Notes under the pieces: generated by a model
Told to the model about the DNA's origin: nothing
Seen by the model: only the letters and a program-made list of their open reading frames with translations
Database searches by the model: none
Translations under genes and position numbers: made by a program
Shown here: positions 27,503 to 38,737 of the stretch, piece by piece
Layout of the letters: each line of letters opens with the position of its first letter
Numbering within the stretch: the first letter of the stretch is position 1
Source: Anaerolineae bacterium
Lineage (GTDB): Bacteria; Chloroflexota; Anaerolineae; UBA1429
Assembly (NCBI GenBank): GCA_040767425.1
Contig: JAXGON010000001.1
Coordinates: 5,477-69,476, forward strand
DNA length: 64,000 bases
Reading direction: 5' to 3'

Positions 27503-29755
27503 TCACCACAACGGTTCGAGCTCTGCCTGGCCAGCAGCTACTCGGCCCAGGAGCAGCTCCGATGCGGCGGGATCGCTGGCTGTCATCACGGGCCACCGCT
27601 GCAGGCTGTGGAGCTCATAGAGGCAGAGATAGATCAGCATCTCGTCCTGCCAGTCGTCCGCGAGTGCGATGACTCGGCGGTCCACGAACTCGTCTCCCGC
27701 CTCCCACAGCGAGGTGGCCAGGCGCCCGTTGGCGAGGGGGCCGTCGGCTTGGGCTATCACCCGGTTGGCCGAGTCGCGGAGCTGCACCGAGACTTGGAGG
27801 TCCACCTTAGGAGCGGCGTGGGCCTGCCAGGCGGTAGCGATCTCTAGCTGGTTGCCGTGGAGGTGCGCGTCCAAACCACTCATGAAAAGCGCCTGACCAA
27901 AAGTGTAGGCGACGGGCTCGAGCTCATGGCTATCGTTCAACCCCCTCAGCTTGATCGGCCCAAGGCGGAGGGTGCGCCCGATGCGCTGGCCACCGGCCCC
28001 AAAGATGGCCAGGGGCCTTTCGGGCGTCCAGCGCGGGAAAAGGCTGACATCCAGCCAGATGGTTCGATGGGGACGGGGTGCCAGGTCGTCGGGTAGGCGC
28101 ATGACCAACTGTTCCAGGTATAGCCCCGGGTCCCAGGAGTCGGTGGCCAGCGATCCGTTGCCGGGGTAGCGGGCGATTTCTGCCAAGAGCGTCCCATCAT
28201 CGTCGTACAGCTTGGCCGAAAGCACCAGCATGGTCCAAACTGGCTCGTTGGCCTGCCAGACTAGTTCGGCCTCGAATGTCCCGCCTGGATCGACCGCTGG
28301 CGTCAAGATGCGCCACGCTGGCATCTCGATCGATCCACCAAAGCGGTATGACGACTGATGATAGGCGGCCAAGTCCTCACGAGTGAGAGTCTTGGGATAG
28401 GCATAGGCGGGCATGATCACCAGCAGAGGCGTCAGCGCGACCAGGCCGGCCATGCCACCCAGCGGCAGCCACGGGATCCAGCGGGCTCTCAAGGCGTCGC
28501 CCAGCGTTACCCAGCCCAGCCCCAGGAGCAGGCCGAGAGCGGGCAACCCGGGCAAGAGGTAGCGCCCCTGCACGTGAGACCAGCCTTGTAATGCCCAGAG
28601 GGCCTGAGGCACCGCCAGCGCGACCATGACCATCACTGCTGCTAGCCCCGTAGCGGCCCGCTGGCGCCGTGTCGGCTGCCGCCGCAGCCAGATAGCGAGG
28701 CCCAAAAGCGGCGGCAGAACAATCCCTAGCGCAGCCAGATAGACCCACCGCTCATAGGCGACATTGTTGTAGCCAAAGCCGGCCCAAAAGGTGCGCAGGG
28801 CGTGCCACCAGGATCCCCAGCGCGTCAGGCCCGAGAGCGCCGTGGTGAGGGTGCCTTTCTCCGTCAAGAGCTCGCGGAGGATGCTCCATGGGCCGGCCAG
28901 GAGGCCGCCCGTCGTTGCCAGGTTGCGGAGGTACCACCATCCCGCTCCGAGGGCGACGACGACCAGGCCCGCCAGCCCGATGGTGATGGCGCGGCGGGTG
29001 CCGGTCCGGAACGTCGCCATCACAGCCAACGCTGGGATCAGCAGCAGGGGGAGACCGTTGGTCTTGGTGAGGGCGAGCATGGCCATGCCAAGTCCCAGGA
29101 TGAGCAGGGCCCGCAGGTAGTGCACGCCTTGCAGCACCAGCAGGCTGCCATATAGGGCCACGGCCGCCGCCAAGGTGACGGCGATGTCGTTGTTGACCAC
29201 GGCGCTGGTAAAGCGGAACTGCGGCCAGAAGGTCACCATCAGGGCGGCGGCCCACCGGATTGCGGGCTGGTCCGGCCAGACGGTCTGGCCGCAGAGATAC
29301 ACGAGCAGGATCACCAGCCCGCCCAGTAGCACCGACACCCATCGCGCCAGGTGAACGCCGAGCGTGTCACCGCGGTAGGGCCAGGCTTCGGCGACTGGAT
29401 CGTGCATGGCGACGTTATGGCCCCCCTGGGCGTCGGGGAAGCGCGCATAGCGGTTGACCTGGTACTCCAGGGGCCCATCCAGGTCGATCAGGGAGACGGG
29501 CAGCGCGCTCACCACATAGTACAGGGGCGGTTGGTGGGTTTCATCCTGGGAAGGGGCGGTCGTGGTGCCGGGTGGTGGTAGGCGCCCTTCCATAGCGATG
29601 TAGCGCAGCTTGGCATAGTGCCCCACCTCGTCGTGGGCCTCCCAGATAGGAATGGTGACGCTATAGTAGACGCCCAGCACCATGTGGCAGAGGAGCAGCA
29701 GGCCCAGCCAGACGGTCTCTTGGGGGCGACGAGATGTCGTGCTTGGCATGGTCAC
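27503..29755 (-). CDS. Membrane glycosyltransferase, GT39/ArnT-like (polyprenol-phosphate-dependent), with a large C-terminal extracytoplasmic domain.
   Basis: 750 aa with about 11 predicted TM helices in the N-terminal 450 aa. A first-loop acidic motif (HDEVGHY) matches the GT-C family pattern. Confidence 0.65.
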   Translation of the reverse strand: MTMPSTTSRRPQETVWLGLLLLCHMVLGVYYSVTIPIWEAHDEVGHYAKLRYIAMEGRLPPPGTTTAPSQDETHQPPLYYVVSALPVSLIDLDGPLEYQVNRYARFPDAQGGHNVAMHDPVAEAWPYRGDTLGVHLARWVSVLLGGLVILLVYLCGQTVWPDQPAIRWAAALMVTFWPQFRFTSAVVNNDIAVTLAAAVALYGSLLVLQGVHYLRALLILGLGMAMLALTKTNGLPLLLIPALAVMATFRTGTRRAITIGLAGLVVVALGAGWWYLRNLATTGGLLAGPWSILRELLTEKGTLTTALSGLTRWGSWWHALRTFWAGFGYNNVAYERWVYLAALGIVLPPLLGLAIWLRRQPTRRQRAATGLAAVMVMVALAVPQALWALQGWSHVQGRYLLPGLPALGLLLGLGWVTLGDALRARWIPWLPLGGMAGLVALTPLLVIMPAYAYPKTLTREDLAAYHQSSYRFGGSIEMPAWRILTPAVDPGGTFEAELVWQANEPVWTMLVLSAKLYDDDGTLLAEIARYPGNGSLATDSWDPGLYLEQLVMRLPDDLAPRPHRTIWLDVSLFPRWTPERPLAIFGAGGQRIGRTLRLGPIKLRGLNDSHELEPVAYTFGQALFMSGLDAHLHGNQLEIATAWQAHAAPKVDLQVSVQLRDSANRVIAQADGPLANGRLATSLWEAGDEFVDRRVIALADDWQDEMLIYLCLYELHSLQRWPVMTASDPAASELLLGRVAAGQAELEPLW

Positions 29756-29845
29756 ACACTCCTCCAGCCATCGCCTTCGGTGGGATCATGGTACCAGGGA
29801 GTGCGCCATCGTGCAACGCCCCCCCCAGGTCCGCTCCAGCGCGGT

Positions 29846-29875
29846 TTGACAGGCTCTCGACCTCTCGGCGATACT
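29846..29875 (+). promoter_or_regulatory. Candidate promoter for galK.
   Basis: TTGACA (29846-29851), an 18-bp spacer, then GATACT (29870-29875), 37 nt before the ATG at 29912. Confidence 0.35.
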
Positions 29876-29911
29876 GTCGTGGGTGGATCACCGACATGGG
29901 GGACAACTGGC

Positions 29912-31294
29912 ATGGAACCAACAGGGCCAACGACGCGTGCCCTTGAAGCGATATACGGCGACGATCCTGAACTGCTGGCGGCTCAGGTGGAGCGCTATCG
30001 CGCTGATCTGGCCATGTTTGCGGAGCTGTATGGGCCGGGTGAGGTGCGGGTCTGCCGCGCGCCCGGTCGAGTGAACCTGATAGGCGAGCATACCGACTAT
30101 AACCAGGGCTATGTGCTGCCTGTCGCCCTGGACAAGGACGTACTGCTGTTCTGCCGTCCGCGAGAGGATGATCTGGTGCAGCTTCAGAACGTCGAGAGCG
30201 TCTATCCTGGCCGCGAGTTCCGCCTCATGTCCGAGATCCCCCCGCAGGCCGTGGGCGATTGGGCCAACTATGCACAGGGCCCAGCCCAGCTACTGGCCCG
30301 TGAATCGGGCGTGGCCCTAAAGGGCATGGATGCCCTGGTGGACGGACGTTCGCCGCACGGAATCCCTCGTGGCTCTGGGCTGTCGTCGTCGTCGGCGTTG
30401 ACGGTGGCCACCGCGGTGGCCTTGGTTGAACTGAACGAGGTGGATCTGGAGGGTGCGGCCCTGGCGGATGCTTGCGGGCGGGCTGAATGGTACGTGGGCA
30501 CCCGTGGTGGCATCATGGACCAGTTCAGCGCTGTACTGGCTCGCCGCGATCATGCGCTATTCCTGGACTGCCGACCGCGTGGCGAGGCCACTGCCTATGC
30601 CTATGAGCATGTGCCTCTCCCGGCCGGCTATGCGGTTGTGGTGGTGGATAGTGGCGTCCGCCATCGGAATACGGGGCCCCATTTCAACCGACGCGTGGCC
30701 GAGTGTCGCGTCGGGGTGCGTCTTTTGCAGCGGCACTACCCAGAGGTCCAGGCGTTGCGCGACGCCGAGGGGTTGCCGTGGGGCGATCTGGAGCCGCTGC
30801 TACCGGAATCGATCAGCCGTGCGGAGTTGGAAGCGCTGGGCATCGACCCGGATGCGCTCCTAGACCGTGGTGTGGCTACCGAGACCGACGAGTTTCAGGT
30901 GCGCAGGCGCTGCCGCCACGTGATCACCGAGAACGCCCGCGTGGTGGAGGCAGTGGCACGGCTCAAGGCGGGGGACGTGCCGGCCTTTGGCGCTCTGATG
31001 AACCGGGCGCACGCCAGCGCCCGAGACGACTATGAGATCAGCACGCCCGAGATCGAGGTGCTGGTGGGGCTGGCGCAAGATGAGGATGGCGTGGTAGGGG
31101 CGCGGCTGACCGGCGCCGGCTGGGGTGGATGCATCGTGGCCCTGGTCTCCAGCGACAGGGCGGCCTCCTTTTGCCAGAACGTGCCTCCCGCCTATGAGCG
31201 CGAGACGGGCCGACGTGCCCAGGCCTTTTTGTGCCGTTCAGGCCCGGGGGCTGGCTTGGTGTTACGCACTACCACAGAGGACGAGGTGTCATGA
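29912..31294 (+). CDS. galK: Galactokinase (GHMP kinase).
   Basis: Contains APGRVNLIGEHTDY, the GHMP motif PRGSGLSSSSAL, and a C-terminal GAGWGGC. The ORF track starts it at 29618; I chose the MEPTG ATG at 29912. Confidence 0.8.
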   Translation: MEPTGPTTRALEAIYGDDPELLAAQVERYRADLAMFAELYGPGEVRVCRAPGRVNLIGEHTDYNQGYVLPVALDKDVLLFCRPREDDLVQLQNVESVYPGREFRLMSEIPPQAVGDWANYAQGPAQLLARESGVALKGMDALVDGRSPHGIPRGSGLSSSSALTVATAVALVELNEVDLEGAALADACGRAEWYVGTRGGIMDQFSAVLARRDHALFLDCRPRGEATAYAYEHVPLPAGYAVVVVDSGVRHRNTGPHFNRRVAECRVGVRLLQRHYPEVQALRDAEGLPWGDLEPLLPESISRAELEALGIDPDALLDRGVATETDEFQVRRRCRHVITENARVVEAVARLKAGDVPAFGALMNRAHASARDDYEISTPEIEVLVGLAQDEDGVVGARLTGAGWGGCIVALVSSDRAASFCQNVPPAYERETGRRAQAFLCRSGPGAGLVLRTTTEDEVS

Positions 31295-31716
31295 CGGACA
31301 AGGTGCTGTCCCGCGCGGAAGATGTCTATGCCGCCGGCGGCCATTGATCGGAGGCAATCGTCCTTGCCGTCGGCGAGGCGCTGTTTGGTCGAGTGCCTGG
31401 CCCGTTGACGCGAGCCAGCAGCCCCTTTGGAGGCGGGGTAGGGGGCTCGCTGGACGAGATGTGCGGGCTCTTGAGCGGGGGCGTCCTGCTGATTGGCGCG
31501 CTGCTGGGACGCGAGCTGCCCGACTGGCCTGACGAGGAGGCGCAGCGTTTGGCGGCGCTATGGCGCCAGCGCTTCCTGGCCGAATACGGCGCCACCCGCT
31601 GCAGGACGCTCCGCGATGCCCTGCCCGACGTCCCCCATCGCTGCCGGTCCCTGGTCAGGCAAGCGACGGCTCTCTTGCGAGATCTGTTGGCGGAGGAGGG
31701 CCACCTCGAGCCCTAG
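31291..31716 (+). CDS. C_GCAxxG_C_C family putative redox protein with an in-frame TGA (31345-31347) at the first conserved Cys, a candidate selenoprotein of about 141 aa.
   Basis: Reading through the TGA gives MTDKVLSRAEDVYAAGGH-U-SEAIVLAVGEAL...FGGGVGGSLDEMCGLLSGGVLLIGALLG...GATRCRTLRDALPDVPHRCRSLV. Every family motif is in one frame: xH-C-AESVL with the Cys replaced by TGA, FGGG.G, the C-G-x-x-x-G motif, and the two C-terminal Cys. The ATG overlaps the galK stop (ATGA). A hairpin GGCAA-ucgucc-UUGCC starts 6 nt after the TGA. Confidence 0.6.
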
Positions 31717-32585
31717 TCCGTCGGCTCAAGCCCCACGTGCGAGGCAGCGGGCGTAATCCAGGCGCGAGACATGCGCTGGGTATTCATGGCGCAACCGATC
31801 TCTCCGTCGCGGGTGAGTACAATCAGGCCGCCCTCGCCGTGCACGCGCTGGGCGAGATAGGCGATAGCCTCTTCGGCGGCTTGCTGGGCGGTCATACCCC
31901 CCTTGGCCAGGTGGTCGATGCAACGCTTGGCCATGACGATGCGGGTGATCTGTTCCCCGACGCCGGTGCAGGACACGCCGCCCACCTGGTCGTCGGCATA
32001 GATCCCGGCGCCGATACAGGGCACGTCACCCACCCGGCCGGGCACTTTGAGCGGCGAGCCTCCCGTGGAAACGCCGGCGGCCAGGTGGCCCGAGAGATCC
32101 AAGGCCACCGCTCCCACCGTGTCGCTAATCCCCTGATGGGCCAGCACGCGCTCGCGCTCGCGAGCCACGATCAGCTCATCGGGTGAGCAGCGACGCAGGC
32201 CATGCTGCTCGCCCCAGCGATGCGCTCCCTCCCCCACCAAGAGCACGTGAGGAGCGGATACCAGCAGCCGTGCCAGGGAGATGGGGTTGCGCATCTGGGA
32301 GATGGCGGCCACGGCCCCGGCGTTGAGGTCGGCGCCCTCCATAAAGGCCGCATCCATAGAGAGCGCGCCATCCAGGTCCAGGAACGAGCCCCGGCCGGCA
32401 TCAAATACCTCGTCATCCTCCATCACACGGATGGCCGCCTCTACGGCGTCCTCGGCGCTGCCGCCAGCCGTCAGCAGCTCCCAGCCCACTTGGCTGGCCC
32501 TTTGCACGCCCAGGCGGTGCCCCTCGGCCTGCTCATCGGGGATGTCGCCGGCGCCCCCATGGACTACGATGACGGGTCGTGACAT
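31713..32585 (-). CDS. Isoaspartyl peptidase/L-asparaginase (Ntn-hydrolase, plant-type asparaginase family).
   Basis: Contains HGGAG, the autoproteolytic GT nucleophile (DTVGAVALD), and GVSTGG. Confidence 0.8.
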   Translation of the reverse strand: MSRPVIVVHGGAGDIPDEQAEGHRLGVQRASQVGWELLTAGGSAEDAVEAAIRVMEDDEVFDAGRGSFLDLDGALSMDAAFMEGADLNAGAVAAISQMRNPISLARLLVSAPHVLLVGEGAHRWGEQHGLRRCSPDELIVARERERVLAHQGISDTVGAVALDLSGHLAAGVSTGGSPLKVPGRVGDVPCIGAGIYADDQVGGVSCTGVGEQITRIVMAKRCIDHLAKGGMTAQQAAEEAIAYLAQRVHGEGGLIVLTRDGEIGCAMNTQRMSRAWITPAASHVGLEPTD

Positions 32586-35504: not shown

Positions 35505-38186
35505 CTAGGCTTCCAGCGTCGCCAGGCGCTCTTCCAGGCGCTGCTTGCGTTCCTGGTGCGAGGCCAGCTTGTCCCGCTCCCGCTGTACCACCTCGGCCGG
35601 CGCCTTGCTGCAGAACCCCTCGTTGCTCAACAGCTTTTCCGAGCGTGCAATCTCGCCCTCGGCGGCCTCGATCTCGCTACGGAGACGCTCCCTTTCACGA
35701 TCAAGATCGACCAGATCCGCTAACGGCAGATAGCACTCGATGCTGCCCACGACCAGGGTCAGGGCCTGGGCGGGCTTGTCCTCAAGCTTCGAGGCGATTT
35801 CTAGCCGTGATGGCTCCACGCGAGCCAGGCTAGAGAGCACCCCGCGGATCCCCTCAAGCCACGGCGTCTGGTCCCCCGCCACGACGATGGCCGCGATCCA
35901 CCGCCCCGGTTCCACATCATACTCGGCGCGGGCGTTGCGGATAGCCCGCACCAACGCAAAGAGGGCATCGACCTCAGCCATGGCGCGGGCATCGGAGGGG
36001 CCCGCCTGTGGCCACGGGGCCACGATCAGCGCGTCGCCCCGATGGGGCAGGTACTGCCACGCCGCCTCGGTCACGAACGGCATGAACGGGTGCAGCAGGC
36101 GCAAGCTGCCCACGAGCACATAGACCAGCACGCGCCGCGCCGCATCGGCGCTGGCAGGGTCCTGGCTTCGGAGGCGCACCTTGCTGGCCTCGATGTACCA
36201 GTCACAGTACTCGCCCCACAGGAACTCGTAGAGCTGTCTCCCGGCCTCGCCGATCTGGAACGCGTTCACCAGGCGCGATGTCTCCTCGATCAGCTGGTGA
36301 TAGCGGCTCACGATCCAGCGATCCAGCGGATCCTTCAGGGTGGCGGGATCCAGCGGTTCCTCTGACGGGGTGAATGCCTCCGGCTCCGCGCCCAGATTGC
36401 CGAGCACATACCTGGCCGCCTGCCAGATCTTGTTGCAAAAGTTGCGGTTCGATTCCACGCGTTCCATGGCCAGCTTCATGTCGTTGCCTGGCGTGGAGCC
36501 CGTCAGCAGGGTAAAGCGTAACGCGTCGAGCCCGTACTCGTCGATTACCAGCAACGGATCGTACTGGTCCACATCCGGCAACGACTTGCTGATCTTGTTG
36601 CCGTTGCGATCTCGCACCAGCCCGTGTAGGTAGACGGTATGGAACGGCAGCTCGCCGGTCATCTCTAGGCCCATCATCACCATGCGGGCGACCCAGAAGA
36701 ACAGAATGTCATAGCCGGTCTCCATGACCGACGTCGGGTAAAAGTAGCGCAGATCGGCCGTATCGTCGGGCCAGCCCAGCGTCGAGAACGGCCAGAGCGC
36801 CGACGAGAACCAAGTGTCGAGCACGTCGGGATCCTGCGTGAGCTCGGTGCCGCCACACTCGGTGCAGGTGGTGGGATCCTCGCGCCCCGTCATCATGGCG
36901 CCACAAGCATCGCAGTACCACACGGGGATGCGGTGCCCCCACCAAAGCTGGCGGGAGATGCACCAGTCGCGGATGCCCTCCATCCAATCGGTATAGACCT
37001 TGGCAAAGCGCTCGGGCACGATGCGTAGGCGACCATCGCGCACAGCCTGAAGGGCCGGCTCTGCCAACGGCTTGGCCTTGACGAACCACTGGGTCGAGAT
37101 GCGTGGCTCGATGACGGTATCGCAGCGCTGGCAGTGCCCCACGCTGTGATGGTACGGCTCGATCTTGACCAGATCACCAGCCTCGTCGAGCTGAGCGACC
37201 AACGCTTGGCGGCAATCTAGCGTGCTCATACCCGCAAAGGGGCCGGCGGCATCGCTCATGGTTCCCTGATTCGTCATCACGTCGACGCTGGCCAGGCCGT
37301 GTCGCTGGCCGATCTCATAGTCCACCGGGTCATGAGCGGGGGTGACCTTGACGGCGCCTGTGCCGAACTCGGAATCCACCGCCTCATCGGCGATGATGGG
37401 CACCTCGCGCTGAACGAACGGGATCACCACCTGCTGCCCGATGAGGTTGTGGTAGCGGTCATCGTCGGGATGCACCGCCACGGCGGTATCACCCAGGATC
37501 GTCTCTGGGCGAGTGGTGGCCACCACGATGGATTGCGAGCGATCGGGCGTCCAGTAGCGCACGTACCACAGGTTGGTGTCGGTCTCGGCGTGCTCCACCT
37601 CGAGATCGGAGATGGCCGTGCCGCAGCGGGGACACCAGTTCACCAGATAGAGGCCGCGGTAGATCAGTCCCTGGTCATACAAGCGCACAAAGGCCTCCCG
37701 CACGGCACGGGACAGGTCCTCCTCCATGGTGAACCGTTCGCGCTCCCAGTCGCACGAGATGCCCAAGCGGCGTTGCTGCTGGGTGATGCGGGCGTGATAG
37801 ATGGCCTTCCACTCCCACACGCGCTCGATGAACCCGTCGCGGCCCAGGTCGTGCCGAGAGAGCCCTTCGCGGGCCAGCTCACGCTCAACCACGTTCTGGG
37901 TGGCAATGCCGGCGTGATCGGTGCCTGGCACCCACAGCGTCGGCTCGCCCAGCATACGGTGGTAGCGGATCAGGGCGTCCTCGATGCTGGACATGATGGC
38001 ATGGCCCAGATGCAAGGCGCCGGTCACATTGGGAGGCGGCATCGAGATGACAAACGGCTTGCGCTCGGGGTCGACGCTAGGGCGAAAGAACCCTCGCCTC
38101 TCCCACCACTCGTAGAGCGGCTGTTCGATCAGCCCAGCGTCATAGATTTTGGGCATCTCTGACGGAAGCGGTGCTCTGGGATCCAT
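35505..38186 (-). CDS. valS: Valyl-tRNA synthetase.
   Basis: Has the HIGH-region PPNVTGALHLGHA, the KMSKS-like KISKS, an editing domain and a C-terminal coiled coil. A GGAGAGGAGA Shine-Dalgarno precedes the ATG at 38186 (MDPRAPLPSEMPKIYD). Confidence 0.9.
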   Translation of the reverse strand: MDPRAPLPSEMPKIYDAGLIEQPLYEWWERRGFFRPSVDPERKPFVISMPPPNVTGALHLGHAIMSSIEDALIRYHRMLGEPTLWVPGTDHAGIATQNVVERELAREGLSRHDLGRDGFIERVWEWKAIYHARITQQQRRLGISCDWERERFTMEEDLSRAVREAFVRLYDQGLIYRGLYLVNWCPRCGTAISDLEVEHAETDTNLWYVRYWTPDRSQSIVVATTRPETILGDTAVAVHPDDDRYHNLIGQQVVIPFVQREVPIIADEAVDSEFGTGAVKVTPAHDPVDYEIGQRHGLASVDVMTNQGTMSDAAGPFAGMSTLDCRQALVAQLDEAGDLVKIEPYHHSVGHCQRCDTVIEPRISTQWFVKAKPLAEPALQAVRDGRLRIVPERFAKVYTDWMEGIRDWCISRQLWWGHRIPVWYCDACGAMMTGREDPTTCTECGGTELTQDPDVLDTWFSSALWPFSTLGWPDDTADLRYFYPTSVMETGYDILFFWVARMVMMGLEMTGELPFHTVYLHGLVRDRNGNKISKSLPDVDQYDPLLVIDEYGLDALRFTLLTGSTPGNDMKLAMERVESNRNFCNKIWQAARYVLGNLGAEPEAFTPSEEPLDPATLKDPLDRWIVSRYHQLIEETSRLVNAFQIGEAGRQLYEFLWGEYCDWYIEASKVRLRSQDPASADAARRVLVYVLVGSLRLLHPFMPFVTEAAWQYLPHRGDALIVAPWPQAGPSDARAMAEVDALFALVRAIRNARAEYDVEPGRWIAAIVVAGDQTPWLEGIRGVLSSLARVEPSRLEIASKLEDKPAQALTLVVGSIECYLPLADLVDLDRERERLRSEIEAAEGEIARSEKLLSNEGFCSKAPAEVVQRERDKLASHQERKQRLEERLATLEA

Positions 38187-38470
38187 CGGGTCTCCTCTCC
38201 GGTCAGGGCTATGCTGACCGCACAACAAAAAAGGCTCCTTCGTCTTCTTGGAGACGAAAGAGCCCTTCCGCGGTACCACTCCAGTTCGATGGCGGTCACC
38301 AGGCACACCACCGCGCTCGATGGCTGTAACGGGCGTTCCCGGACTGGCCTACCTATTCAGCCAGCCTGCTCCCAGGCGACTTTGGGCTGCGCTTGCCGCG
38401 AGGGGCTTTCAGCCGGTGACCCCTCTTCTCTACCAGCGCCCGACAGCCTACTCCTCCTGCTCACTGCAGT
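38187..38470 (-). promoter_or_regulatory. T-box riboswitch leader of valS, with its promoter at 38478-38506 and an intrinsic terminator.
   Basis: On the minus strand: promoter TTGACC-17-TACAAT; a stem-I region containing GGGGUCACC, which carries a GUC Val codon followed by a purine; the conserved T-box AACUGGAGUGGUACCGCGG (forward 38264-38282); and a terminator GGCUCUUUCGUC-loop-GACGAAGGAGCC plus UUUUUUGUU (forward 38224-38265). Confidence 0.6.
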
Positions 38471-38737
38471 TGACCAGATTGTAGCATGGGGGCGGCCGGC
38501 GGTCAACCTGAGGTTTCGAACGGAAAGGGGAGCACCCCTGGGCGACAAAACAACGGGTTCCACCGAGCGAGAGGCGCCTTCGCCGCTGCAGAGGTCCCCG
38601 AGATCAGGTTGCCGGGACGCGGCCAGTGGCACCCGCCCGCTCTCTTGCATATAATAGACTCAGCAAGCAAGGGTGCTTTCGCGACCGAGGCCGGTTTTTC
38701 TGTGGTAGACTCAGAAACATGGTGAAAAGGAACAACG

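Follow-up and report, generated by a model that had tools for sequence, protein, structure and literature searches.

A probable Chloroflexota selenoprotein gene of the C_GCAxxG_C_C family with a conserved hairpin downstream of its in-frame UGA

We analysed a stretch of 64,000 nucleotides (nt) from an Anaerolineae bacterium (GenBank assembly GCA_040767425.1, contig JAXGON010000001.1, positions 5,477 to 69,476 of the forward strand). This stretch is referred to as the window, and positions follow its own numbering unless another locus is named. Directly downstream of the galactokinase gene galK, the window carries a gene of the C_GCAxxG_C_C family with an in-frame TGA at codon 19. We conclude with high confidence that this is a genuine selenocysteine (Sec)-encoding gene (31291-31716), in which Sec at residue 19 replaces the first invariant cysteine of the family. 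The gene is a further Chloroflexota member of an already known selenoprotein family. It is not new in kind, because the family is already listed as containing selenoproteins: a "C-GCAxxG-C-C family protein", in forms 1 and 2, appears under PF09719 in two reviews of prokaryotic selenoproteins (PMC9312934, PMC13188914), and the current name of NCBIfam TIGR01909 is "C-GCAxxG-C-C family (seleno)protein". Sec/Cys exchange, a Sec insertion sequence (SECIS) within the coding region and this selenoprotein family are all established, and no new principle is involved. Not yet described may be how large and uniform the Chloroflexota Sec clade is, its 17-nt SECIS in a fixed register, the linkages to NifU-type genes and to galK, and the fold link to the iron-centre domain of split-Soret cytochromes. 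The main features are as follows.

31291..31716, plus strand: coding sequence of the predicted selenoprotein, C_GCAxxG_C_C family (PF09719), from the frame, profile matches and alignment
31345..31347, plus strand: UGA codon 19, the presumed Sec codon, in the first invariant cysteine column of the family
31362..31378, plus strand: SECIS-type hairpin CCUUGCC-GUC-GGCGAGG, 17 nt, with arms 31362-31368 and 31372-31378 and loop 31369-31371
31462..31464, plus strand: Cys58 codon, in the CG(A/L)LSGG motif, an invariant column
31600..31602, plus strand: Cys104 codon, an invariant column
31642..31644, plus strand: Cys118 codon, an invariant column

Reading frame, family and conservation of the TGA

Read and translated from the sequence, a single plus-strand frame runs from 31291 over 141 codons to a TAG at 31714-31716. 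The TGA at codon 19 is preceded by 18 sense codons (MTDKVLSRAEDVYAAGGH) and followed by 122, and the frame as a whole reads MTDKVLSRAEDVYAAGGH-TGA-SEAIVLAVGE...EEGHLEP-TAG. The predicted Sec-containing peptide at residue 19 is AAGGH-U-SEAIVLAVGEALFGR. A six-frame list of open reading frames (ORFs) contains only a tail of 107 amino acids, starting from GTG 31393 and ending at 31716. With cysteine substituted for the TGA in profile searches, the product matched PF09719 with 70.1 bits (cut-off 27; E = 2.2e-19), its residues 18-131 lying on profile positions 2-117 of 118. The match thus begins just ahead of the TGA. A first, sequence-only reading of the locus had proposed a complete family member running through the UGA, with the TGA exactly on the first invariant cysteine and both C-terminal cysteines present, and the alignment with homologues agrees: codon 19, C58, C104 and C118 occupy the four invariant cysteine columns. 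The central motif is CGLLSG in the subclade of the window gene and CGALSG in most other members. The 18 N-terminal codons are kept in frame and without indels in the relatives.

The window protein shares its Pfam domain, along the whole length, with the catalogued C-GCAxxG-C-C selenoproteins. It is likewise a small, all-helical protein of about 140 residues with four conserved cysteine positions, one of which is Sec, and its gene likewise has a hairpin in the coding region after the UGA. It differs in belonging to a large Chloroflexota/Anaerolineae clade, whereas the example accessions of the catalogue are apparently not from Chloroflexota, and in the CGLLSG motif and galK linkage of its subclade. 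The catalogue tables (PMC9312934, PMC13188914) give a Sec motif for neither form, and the family name is absent from the searchable text of the 2007 and 2008 source papers. The profile of the HUGP/GUXX-star fusion selenoprotein (NF045501) also aligned with window residues 6-107, including H18-U19, on positions 11-116 of 236 (E = 8.9e-5). Its score of 22 bits is far below the cut-off of 325, and the window protein lacks the second domain of that fusion. The name of this profile suggests a His-Sec dipeptide, as would be present in GGH-U of the window protein.

The position of the TGA is conserved well beyond the window. Across 96 loci, comprising the window together with metagenomic and genome loci, TGA stood at the identical column in 79 and TGC or TGT in 17, which is the standard Sec/Cys pattern. 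The 79 TGA loci represent 69 distinct Sec-form DNA sequences with 39-91% protein identity. An intact cysteine in the close relatives, which would have spoken for a nonsense mutation, was therefore not the picture obtained: relatives across this whole range of identity keep the TGA. The genome set was drawn from GTDB with one genome per species and returned 80 loci, 63 with TGA and 17 with TGC or TGT. Nearly all of the 63 are Chloroflexota, labelled Anaerolineae, Anaerolineales, Caldilineae, Ardenticatenia, Thermoflexales or "Chloroflexia"; the 17 comprise some Anaerolineae and all matches from Zixibacteria and Desulfobacterota. With TGA recurring at one column in 79 of the 96 loci, its origin by a private nonsense mutation, a read error or chance is excluded; a read error is also not credible because independent assemblies agree on the TGA.

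Protein databases hold these genes mostly in shortened form, as the sequence-only reading had anticipated for automated annotation. A protein database search returned 13 relatives, 12 of which measure 77-121 residues and start just past the TGA position; the only one to span this position (P0013) has cysteine there. When the DNA upstream of the truncated calls was inspected on metagenomic contigs, an in-frame TGA was present at the same column in 7 of 7 distinct homologues (43-88% identical), and all seven have the conserved N-terminal peptide and a plausible start codon before it. A profile search yielded 1886 database proteins at E <= 1e-8. The best 120 of these are almost all 114-128 residues long, with about 80% query coverage, and are truncated just after the UGA. 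This near-universal truncation among the best 120 of 1886 proteins points to a systematic annotation error for the clade. The correct annotation of the window gene would accordingly be a selenoprotein of 141 residues and not a fragment of 103-107 residues, and since most of the closest clade entries carry the same truncation, selenoproteome counts from Chloroflexota metagenome-assembled genomes are too low.

The hairpin downstream of the UGA

The 69 Sec-form sequences could be aligned without gaps, there being no indels in the 45 bases after the TGA. In this alignment RNAalifold identified one helix only, which joins columns 18-24 with columns 28-34 across a 3-nt loop and corresponds to 31362-31378 of the window. 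At these columns, 96.3% of the cells across the 69 distinct sequences are in standard pairs, and sliding the 3' partner by one to three columns lowers this value to 34-46%. Two-sided changes occur in three of the seven pairs (12 cells), namely from G-C to C-G, from C-G to A-U or G-C, and from G-C to A-U. None of 500 shuffles matched the observed pairing, the number of double-change cells or the covariation score. In the window itself, the closing pair C18:G34 is a compensated variant of the usual G:C. The 7-bp hairpin has a mean energy of -11.0 kcal/mol in the Sec forms, as against +4.0 kcal/mol in the Cys forms, and lies at -9.4 to -9.9 kcal/mol in the window, where its stem base is 14 nt and its loop 21 nt from the UGA.

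According to a published consensus (PMC13188914), a bacterial SECIS has an upper stem of 4-16 bp, an apical loop of 3-9 nt with a G as its first or second nucleotide, a spacing of 16-37 nt between UGA and loop, and a minimum free energy of at most -7.5 kcal/mol. With its 7-bp stem, the loop GUC, a spacing of 21 nt and -9.4 kcal/mol, the hairpin at 31362-31378 lies within every one of these limits. In Escherichia coli fdhF, a minimal upper stem-loop of 17 nt is located 11 nt after the UGA. The window hairpin resembles this type in being a 17-nt coding-region hairpin just past the UGA with a loop that starts with G and then U; it differs in its unrelated sequence, in its 3-nt loop without a bulged U and in the distance of 14 instead of 11 nt between UGA and stem base. 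The fixed register of the 17-nt hairpin provides a simple SECIS signature for the lineage, which could help to locate further selenoprotein genes and to define the target of SelB.

The sequence-only reading had assigned the SECIS role to another hairpin, which starts closer to the UGA.

31353..31368, plus strand: hairpin GGCAA-UCGUCC-UUGCC, with arms 31353-31357 and 31364-31368, competing for bases 31362-31368

This hairpin exists in the sequence, but the proposed role did not hold up. It has a 5-bp stem, a loop (UCGUCC) with G as neither its first nor its second nucleotide, a spacing of 10 nt and an energy of -4.6 kcal/mol, the last three of which lie outside the published limits, and its pairing across the 69 sequences (72.5% of cells) equals that of the shuffled mean (72.0%). 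Its origin lies in a chance complementarity between the Glu-Ala codons GAG GCN and the GCC of the stem.

Two further loci are of note for the TGA and its hairpin. The galK-linked subclade includes one member in the Cys form (L042, 3040-3076), which has TGT and a weakened, partial hairpin of -5.4 kcal/mol, and which suggests a recent change from Sec to Cys, with a SECIS under relaxation. In another locus (L095, 3037-3051), a further in-frame stop precedes the Sec TGA by four codons (NA*GYH*), and no other Sec form has so weak a hairpin (-5.6 kcal/mol); the copy may be in decay, or the assembly may be at fault.

Decoding of the UGA and competing explanations

Several observations weigh against Sec insertion at this UGA. 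The sequence-only reading had likened the protein to PF09719 and TIGR01909; the first match is well above its cut-off, but the second, although covering profile positions 2-119 of 120, reaches 44.1 bits and falls narrowly below the cut-off of 47.4. The hairpin lies within the codons for the conserved peptide (V/L)-L-A-V-G-E, and its conservation is thus partly at the protein level. In the free-RNA ensemble of 31345-31398, the hairpin of the sequence-only reading, extended down to the UGA, dominates with P = 0.91, as against P = 0.05 for the conserved hairpin. Only with the first 15 nt kept single-stranded, as would be expected within a ribosome that pauses at the UGA, does the latter rise to P = 0.62 in the window. 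No Rfam family matched the region, neither in a scan of the window at gathering thresholds nor in a permissive scan of 31250-31500, in which the sole match was a chance epsC (E = 2.1). Finally, genes for selA, selB, selD and tRNA-Sec were not detected in the 64-kb window by ARAGORN, Rfam or Pfam searches on 39 large ORFs: the window has one tRNA (Thr), and 33 of the 39 ORFs have a Pfam match, none of them to SelA, SelB or SelD. Likewise, tblastn with SelD and SelA queries (approximate E. coli sequences) gave no match and ARAGORN no tRNA-Sec in the window and the 95 other loci, a test that is weak because the flanks span only 3-5 kb.

Most of these points can be set against further data. Since the hairpin is encoded by a conserved peptide, conservation of the amino acids has to be separated from that of the RNA, and both the choice of codons and the Cys forms do so. 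In the Sec forms the codons of the stem are near-fixed, with CTC for Leu in 57 of 61 cases, GCC for Ala in 56 of 57 and GGC or GGT for Gly in 67 of 68, while immediately 5' of the stem Leu is encoded by CTG or TTG 31 times and by CTC twice. Cys forms that encode the same V/LAVG peptide (L021, L045 and L051) differ in their codons and lack the hairpin: VAVGE is GTG GCG GTG GGG GAA in L021, and LAVG is CTG GCG/GCA GTG GGA/GGG in L045 and L051. With regard to folding, the window is an outlier: in 81% of the 69 sequences, P exceeds 0.5 for the conserved hairpin (median 0.99), while about 4% favour the competitor. Absence of an Rfam match is to be expected, as bacterial SECIS elements are short and lineage-specific. 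Chloroflexi are reported to contain selenoproteins, of three families in a survey from 2006 (PMC1794560), and to have an unusual 8/4 tRNA-Sec (PMC5389517), a form that ARAGORN could miss. Indirectly, the conservation of TGA and hairpin together across 63 genomes at the species level suggests that the lineage decodes Sec.

Among the competing explanations, the one that survives best, albeit as an unlikely one, is that the UGA is read through with a residue other than Sec, by near-cognate insertion of tryptophan or cysteine or by a recoding particular to the lineage, and that the hairpin is either an aid to readthrough or a by-product of encoding LAVGE. The overlap of hairpin and peptide would fit this, as would the fact that the inserted residue is a prediction from sequence and that the Sec machinery was not located in the window or flanks. 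One full-length database homologue (P0025, 144 residues) reads GYH-R-AEAVLLAVGG and thus has arginine in the Sec column, with the SECIS-encoding peptide retained; this Arg could stem from a TGA-to-CGA/AGA change or from a gene-calling artefact. Against non-Sec readthrough, however, the UGA takes the place of an invariant cysteine in a family already curated with selenoproteins, the hairpin agrees with bacterial SECIS geometry throughout, the constraint on synonymous codons is absent from the Cys forms, and Chloroflexi are known Sec decoders. In addition, TGA serves as a normal stop in the rest of the window, where 7 of the 33 Pfam-supported ORFs end with it, among them galK, 51 nt upstream; this rules out a reassignment of TGA in the genetic code.

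Less probable still are two separate products, an 18-residue leader that ends at the TGA and a shorter protein that starts at GTG 31393 or TTG 31405. Start codons are indeed available downstream, and gene callers give exactly this product of 103-107 residues. Such a short form would, however, be missing both the first helix and the first invariant cysteine column of PF09719, whose match starts at residue 18. Protein-level conservation extends to the 18 upstream codons, with ARAGDLxxxGYH across the clade as an example, the downstream start positions are not conserved and the called products begin at differing residues, and Cys-form homologues are continuous and full-length. That the gene is dead, its first cysteine codon TGC or TGT having been turned into TGA by a nonsense mutation or a sequencing error, is hardly conceivable: TGA is one base from either codon, the ORF appears broken in the six-frame view and Sec machinery was not seen in the window, but the same TGA recurs in independent assemblies that span 39-91% protein identity, the reading frame is undamaged and free of indels to either side of it, and a covarying hairpin follows the TGA in TGA-bearing genes only.

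If Sec is inserted, as we favour, a possible sequence of events can be outlined. The gene would be cotranscribed with galK and probably coupled to it in translation. With a ribosome positioned at UGA 31345-31347, roughly the twelve bases that follow would lie in the mRNA channel, so that the competing upstream pairing would be unwound and the hairpin 31362-31378 would thereby be left at the channel entrance. SelB carrying Sec-tRNA(Sec) may then bind this hairpin and deliver Sec, by analogy to the mini-SECIS of E. coli fdhF.

As an observation on stop codon usage, the 33 Pfam-supported ORFs of the window (433-57131; 64.5% GC) end with TAG in 20 cases, TGA in 7 and TAA in 6. Such a dominance of TAG is unusual in a GC-rich bacterium, where TGA normally leads.

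Gene neighbourhood and possible function

The gene is flanked by the following features.

29909..31294, plus strand: galK (galactokinase), with Pfam matches GalKase_gal_bdg (2.7e-20), GHMP_kinases_N and GHMP_kinases_C
31283..31286, plus strand: Shine-Dalgarno-like GAGG within the end of galK, 4 nt 5' of the ATG, read from the sequence
31713..32585, minus strand: convergent Asparaginase_2-family gene (Pfam PF01112, 5.4e-83), the 3' limit of the galK-selenoprotein unit

The start codon (ATG 31291-31293) overlaps the galK stop TGA at 31292-31294 in the sequence gtcATGAcg. This overlap, already pointed out in the sequence-only reading, makes translational coupling probable together with the GAGG motif 4 nt upstream. 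Correspondingly, seven loci have a GalK homologue as their immediate upstream neighbour on the same strand, and the start of the family gene overlaps or abuts the galK stop there. The ATGA overlap and the GAGG are identical in the closest relatives (L016 and L017). In four more distantly related loci (L024, L042, L071 and L090), whose GalK is 57-65% identical, the gene is also situated directly 3' of galK, with its start at most about 12 nt from the galK stop and preceded by GGAG or TAGGAGG. The galK linkage is therefore a conserved trait of one subclade, and its conservation is consistent with translational coupling. The galK ORF is open from GTG 29618 and was translated from 29909, the part supported by Pfam. 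Its true start is uncertain because an ORF of 750 residues on the minus strand (27503-29755), located upstream of galK, overlaps the 5' extension of the galK ORF (29618-29908, plus strand); this long ORF has many predicted hydrophobic stretches and no Pfam match.

At the 3' side, the TAG of the selenoprotein gene and the stop of the Asparaginase_2 gene on the opposite strand overlap within the palindrome CTAG (31713-31716), and likewise in L006. This overlap leaves no room for a terminator between the two genes. The Asparaginase_2 gene is found in the same arrangement in L006, L016 and L017, and a PfkB kinase gene comes next after it.

Other members of the clade have a different neighbourhood. 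Immediately upstream on the same strand, 25 of 68 Sec-form loci have a NifU_N gene. Further upstream, genes of the Nitro_FeMo-Co (24 of 68), MobB/FeS (9 of 68) and Mrp/NBP35-type ATPase (7 of 68) families occur. Among the Cys-form loci, NifU_N, Nitro_FeMo-Co and MobB/FeS genes were found in none and an Mrp/NBP35-type gene in one (L092). Examples of NifU-type neighbourhoods are L012 (1013-3366), L040 (2355-2984), L061 (2181-2975) and L089 (18-1220).

We found no characterised member of the C_GCAxxG_C_C family, and profile searches of the PDB with three alignments gave no true match, leaving the family without a solved structure detectable by sequence. We therefore turned to a predicted structure. 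An AlphaFold model of a full-length Cys-form homologue (P0019; 47% identical, 62-sequence alignment) was of very high confidence, with a predicted local distance difference test score of 96.1 and a predicted template modelling score of 0.90. It presents a seven-helix bundle in which Cys 23, 62, 108 and 118 are each predicted at the start of a helix. At the level of the fold, the model matches split-Soret cytochrome c (PDB 1H21), in its helical domain only and with 16% identity. In 1H21, four non-haem cysteines reportedly ligate a [2Fe-2S] centre. Split-Soret cytochrome c is a dihaem c-type cytochrome with two CxxCH motifs fused to this iron-centre domain. The window protein is no member of this group, as it is a stand-alone domain without a CxxCH haem motif. 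A Geoglobus dihaem cytochrome has been annotated with a C_GCAxxG_C_C domain (PMC4600277), which fits the idea that split-Soret cytochromes are a C_GCAxxG_C_C domain fused to a dihaem module.

Transferred to the window protein, the model would place U19, C58, C104 and C118 at the N-terminal ends of helices, where together they may form one site. By analogy with 1H21, we tentatively suggest that these four residues could hold an iron-sulfur or related iron centre with the selenolate as one ligand, even though we consider this somewhat doubtful; or else, the protein may operate with a selenol/thiol redox couple. Counting against an iron centre, the fold match shows 16% identity, and profile searches gave no link to 1H21 at the level of sequence. 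On the other hand, many members of the clade have a NifU-type neighbourhood, which fits such a centre. A wider and rather unlikely proposal would be that Sec acts as a direct Fe or Fe-S ligand in a stand-alone split-Soret iron-centre domain, that this Sec form is the default one across Anaerolineae-type Chloroflexota, placed in about a third of genomes directly downstream of a NifU-type scaffold gene within a Nitro_FeMo-Co, MobB-FeS and Mrp cluster, and that the protein is a selenium-containing component of metallocluster assembly or transfer, the subclade of the window copy having become fixed behind galK instead. Taken together, the split-Soret fold link and the NifU-type neighbourhood provide a first concrete functional hypothesis for the family, an iron centre with a selenolate ligand.

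Elsewhere in the window, a T-box leader (RF00230, 101.8 bits) is present at 38247-38473 on the minus strand, directly upstream of the valyl-tRNA synthetase gene (35505-38306, minus strand).

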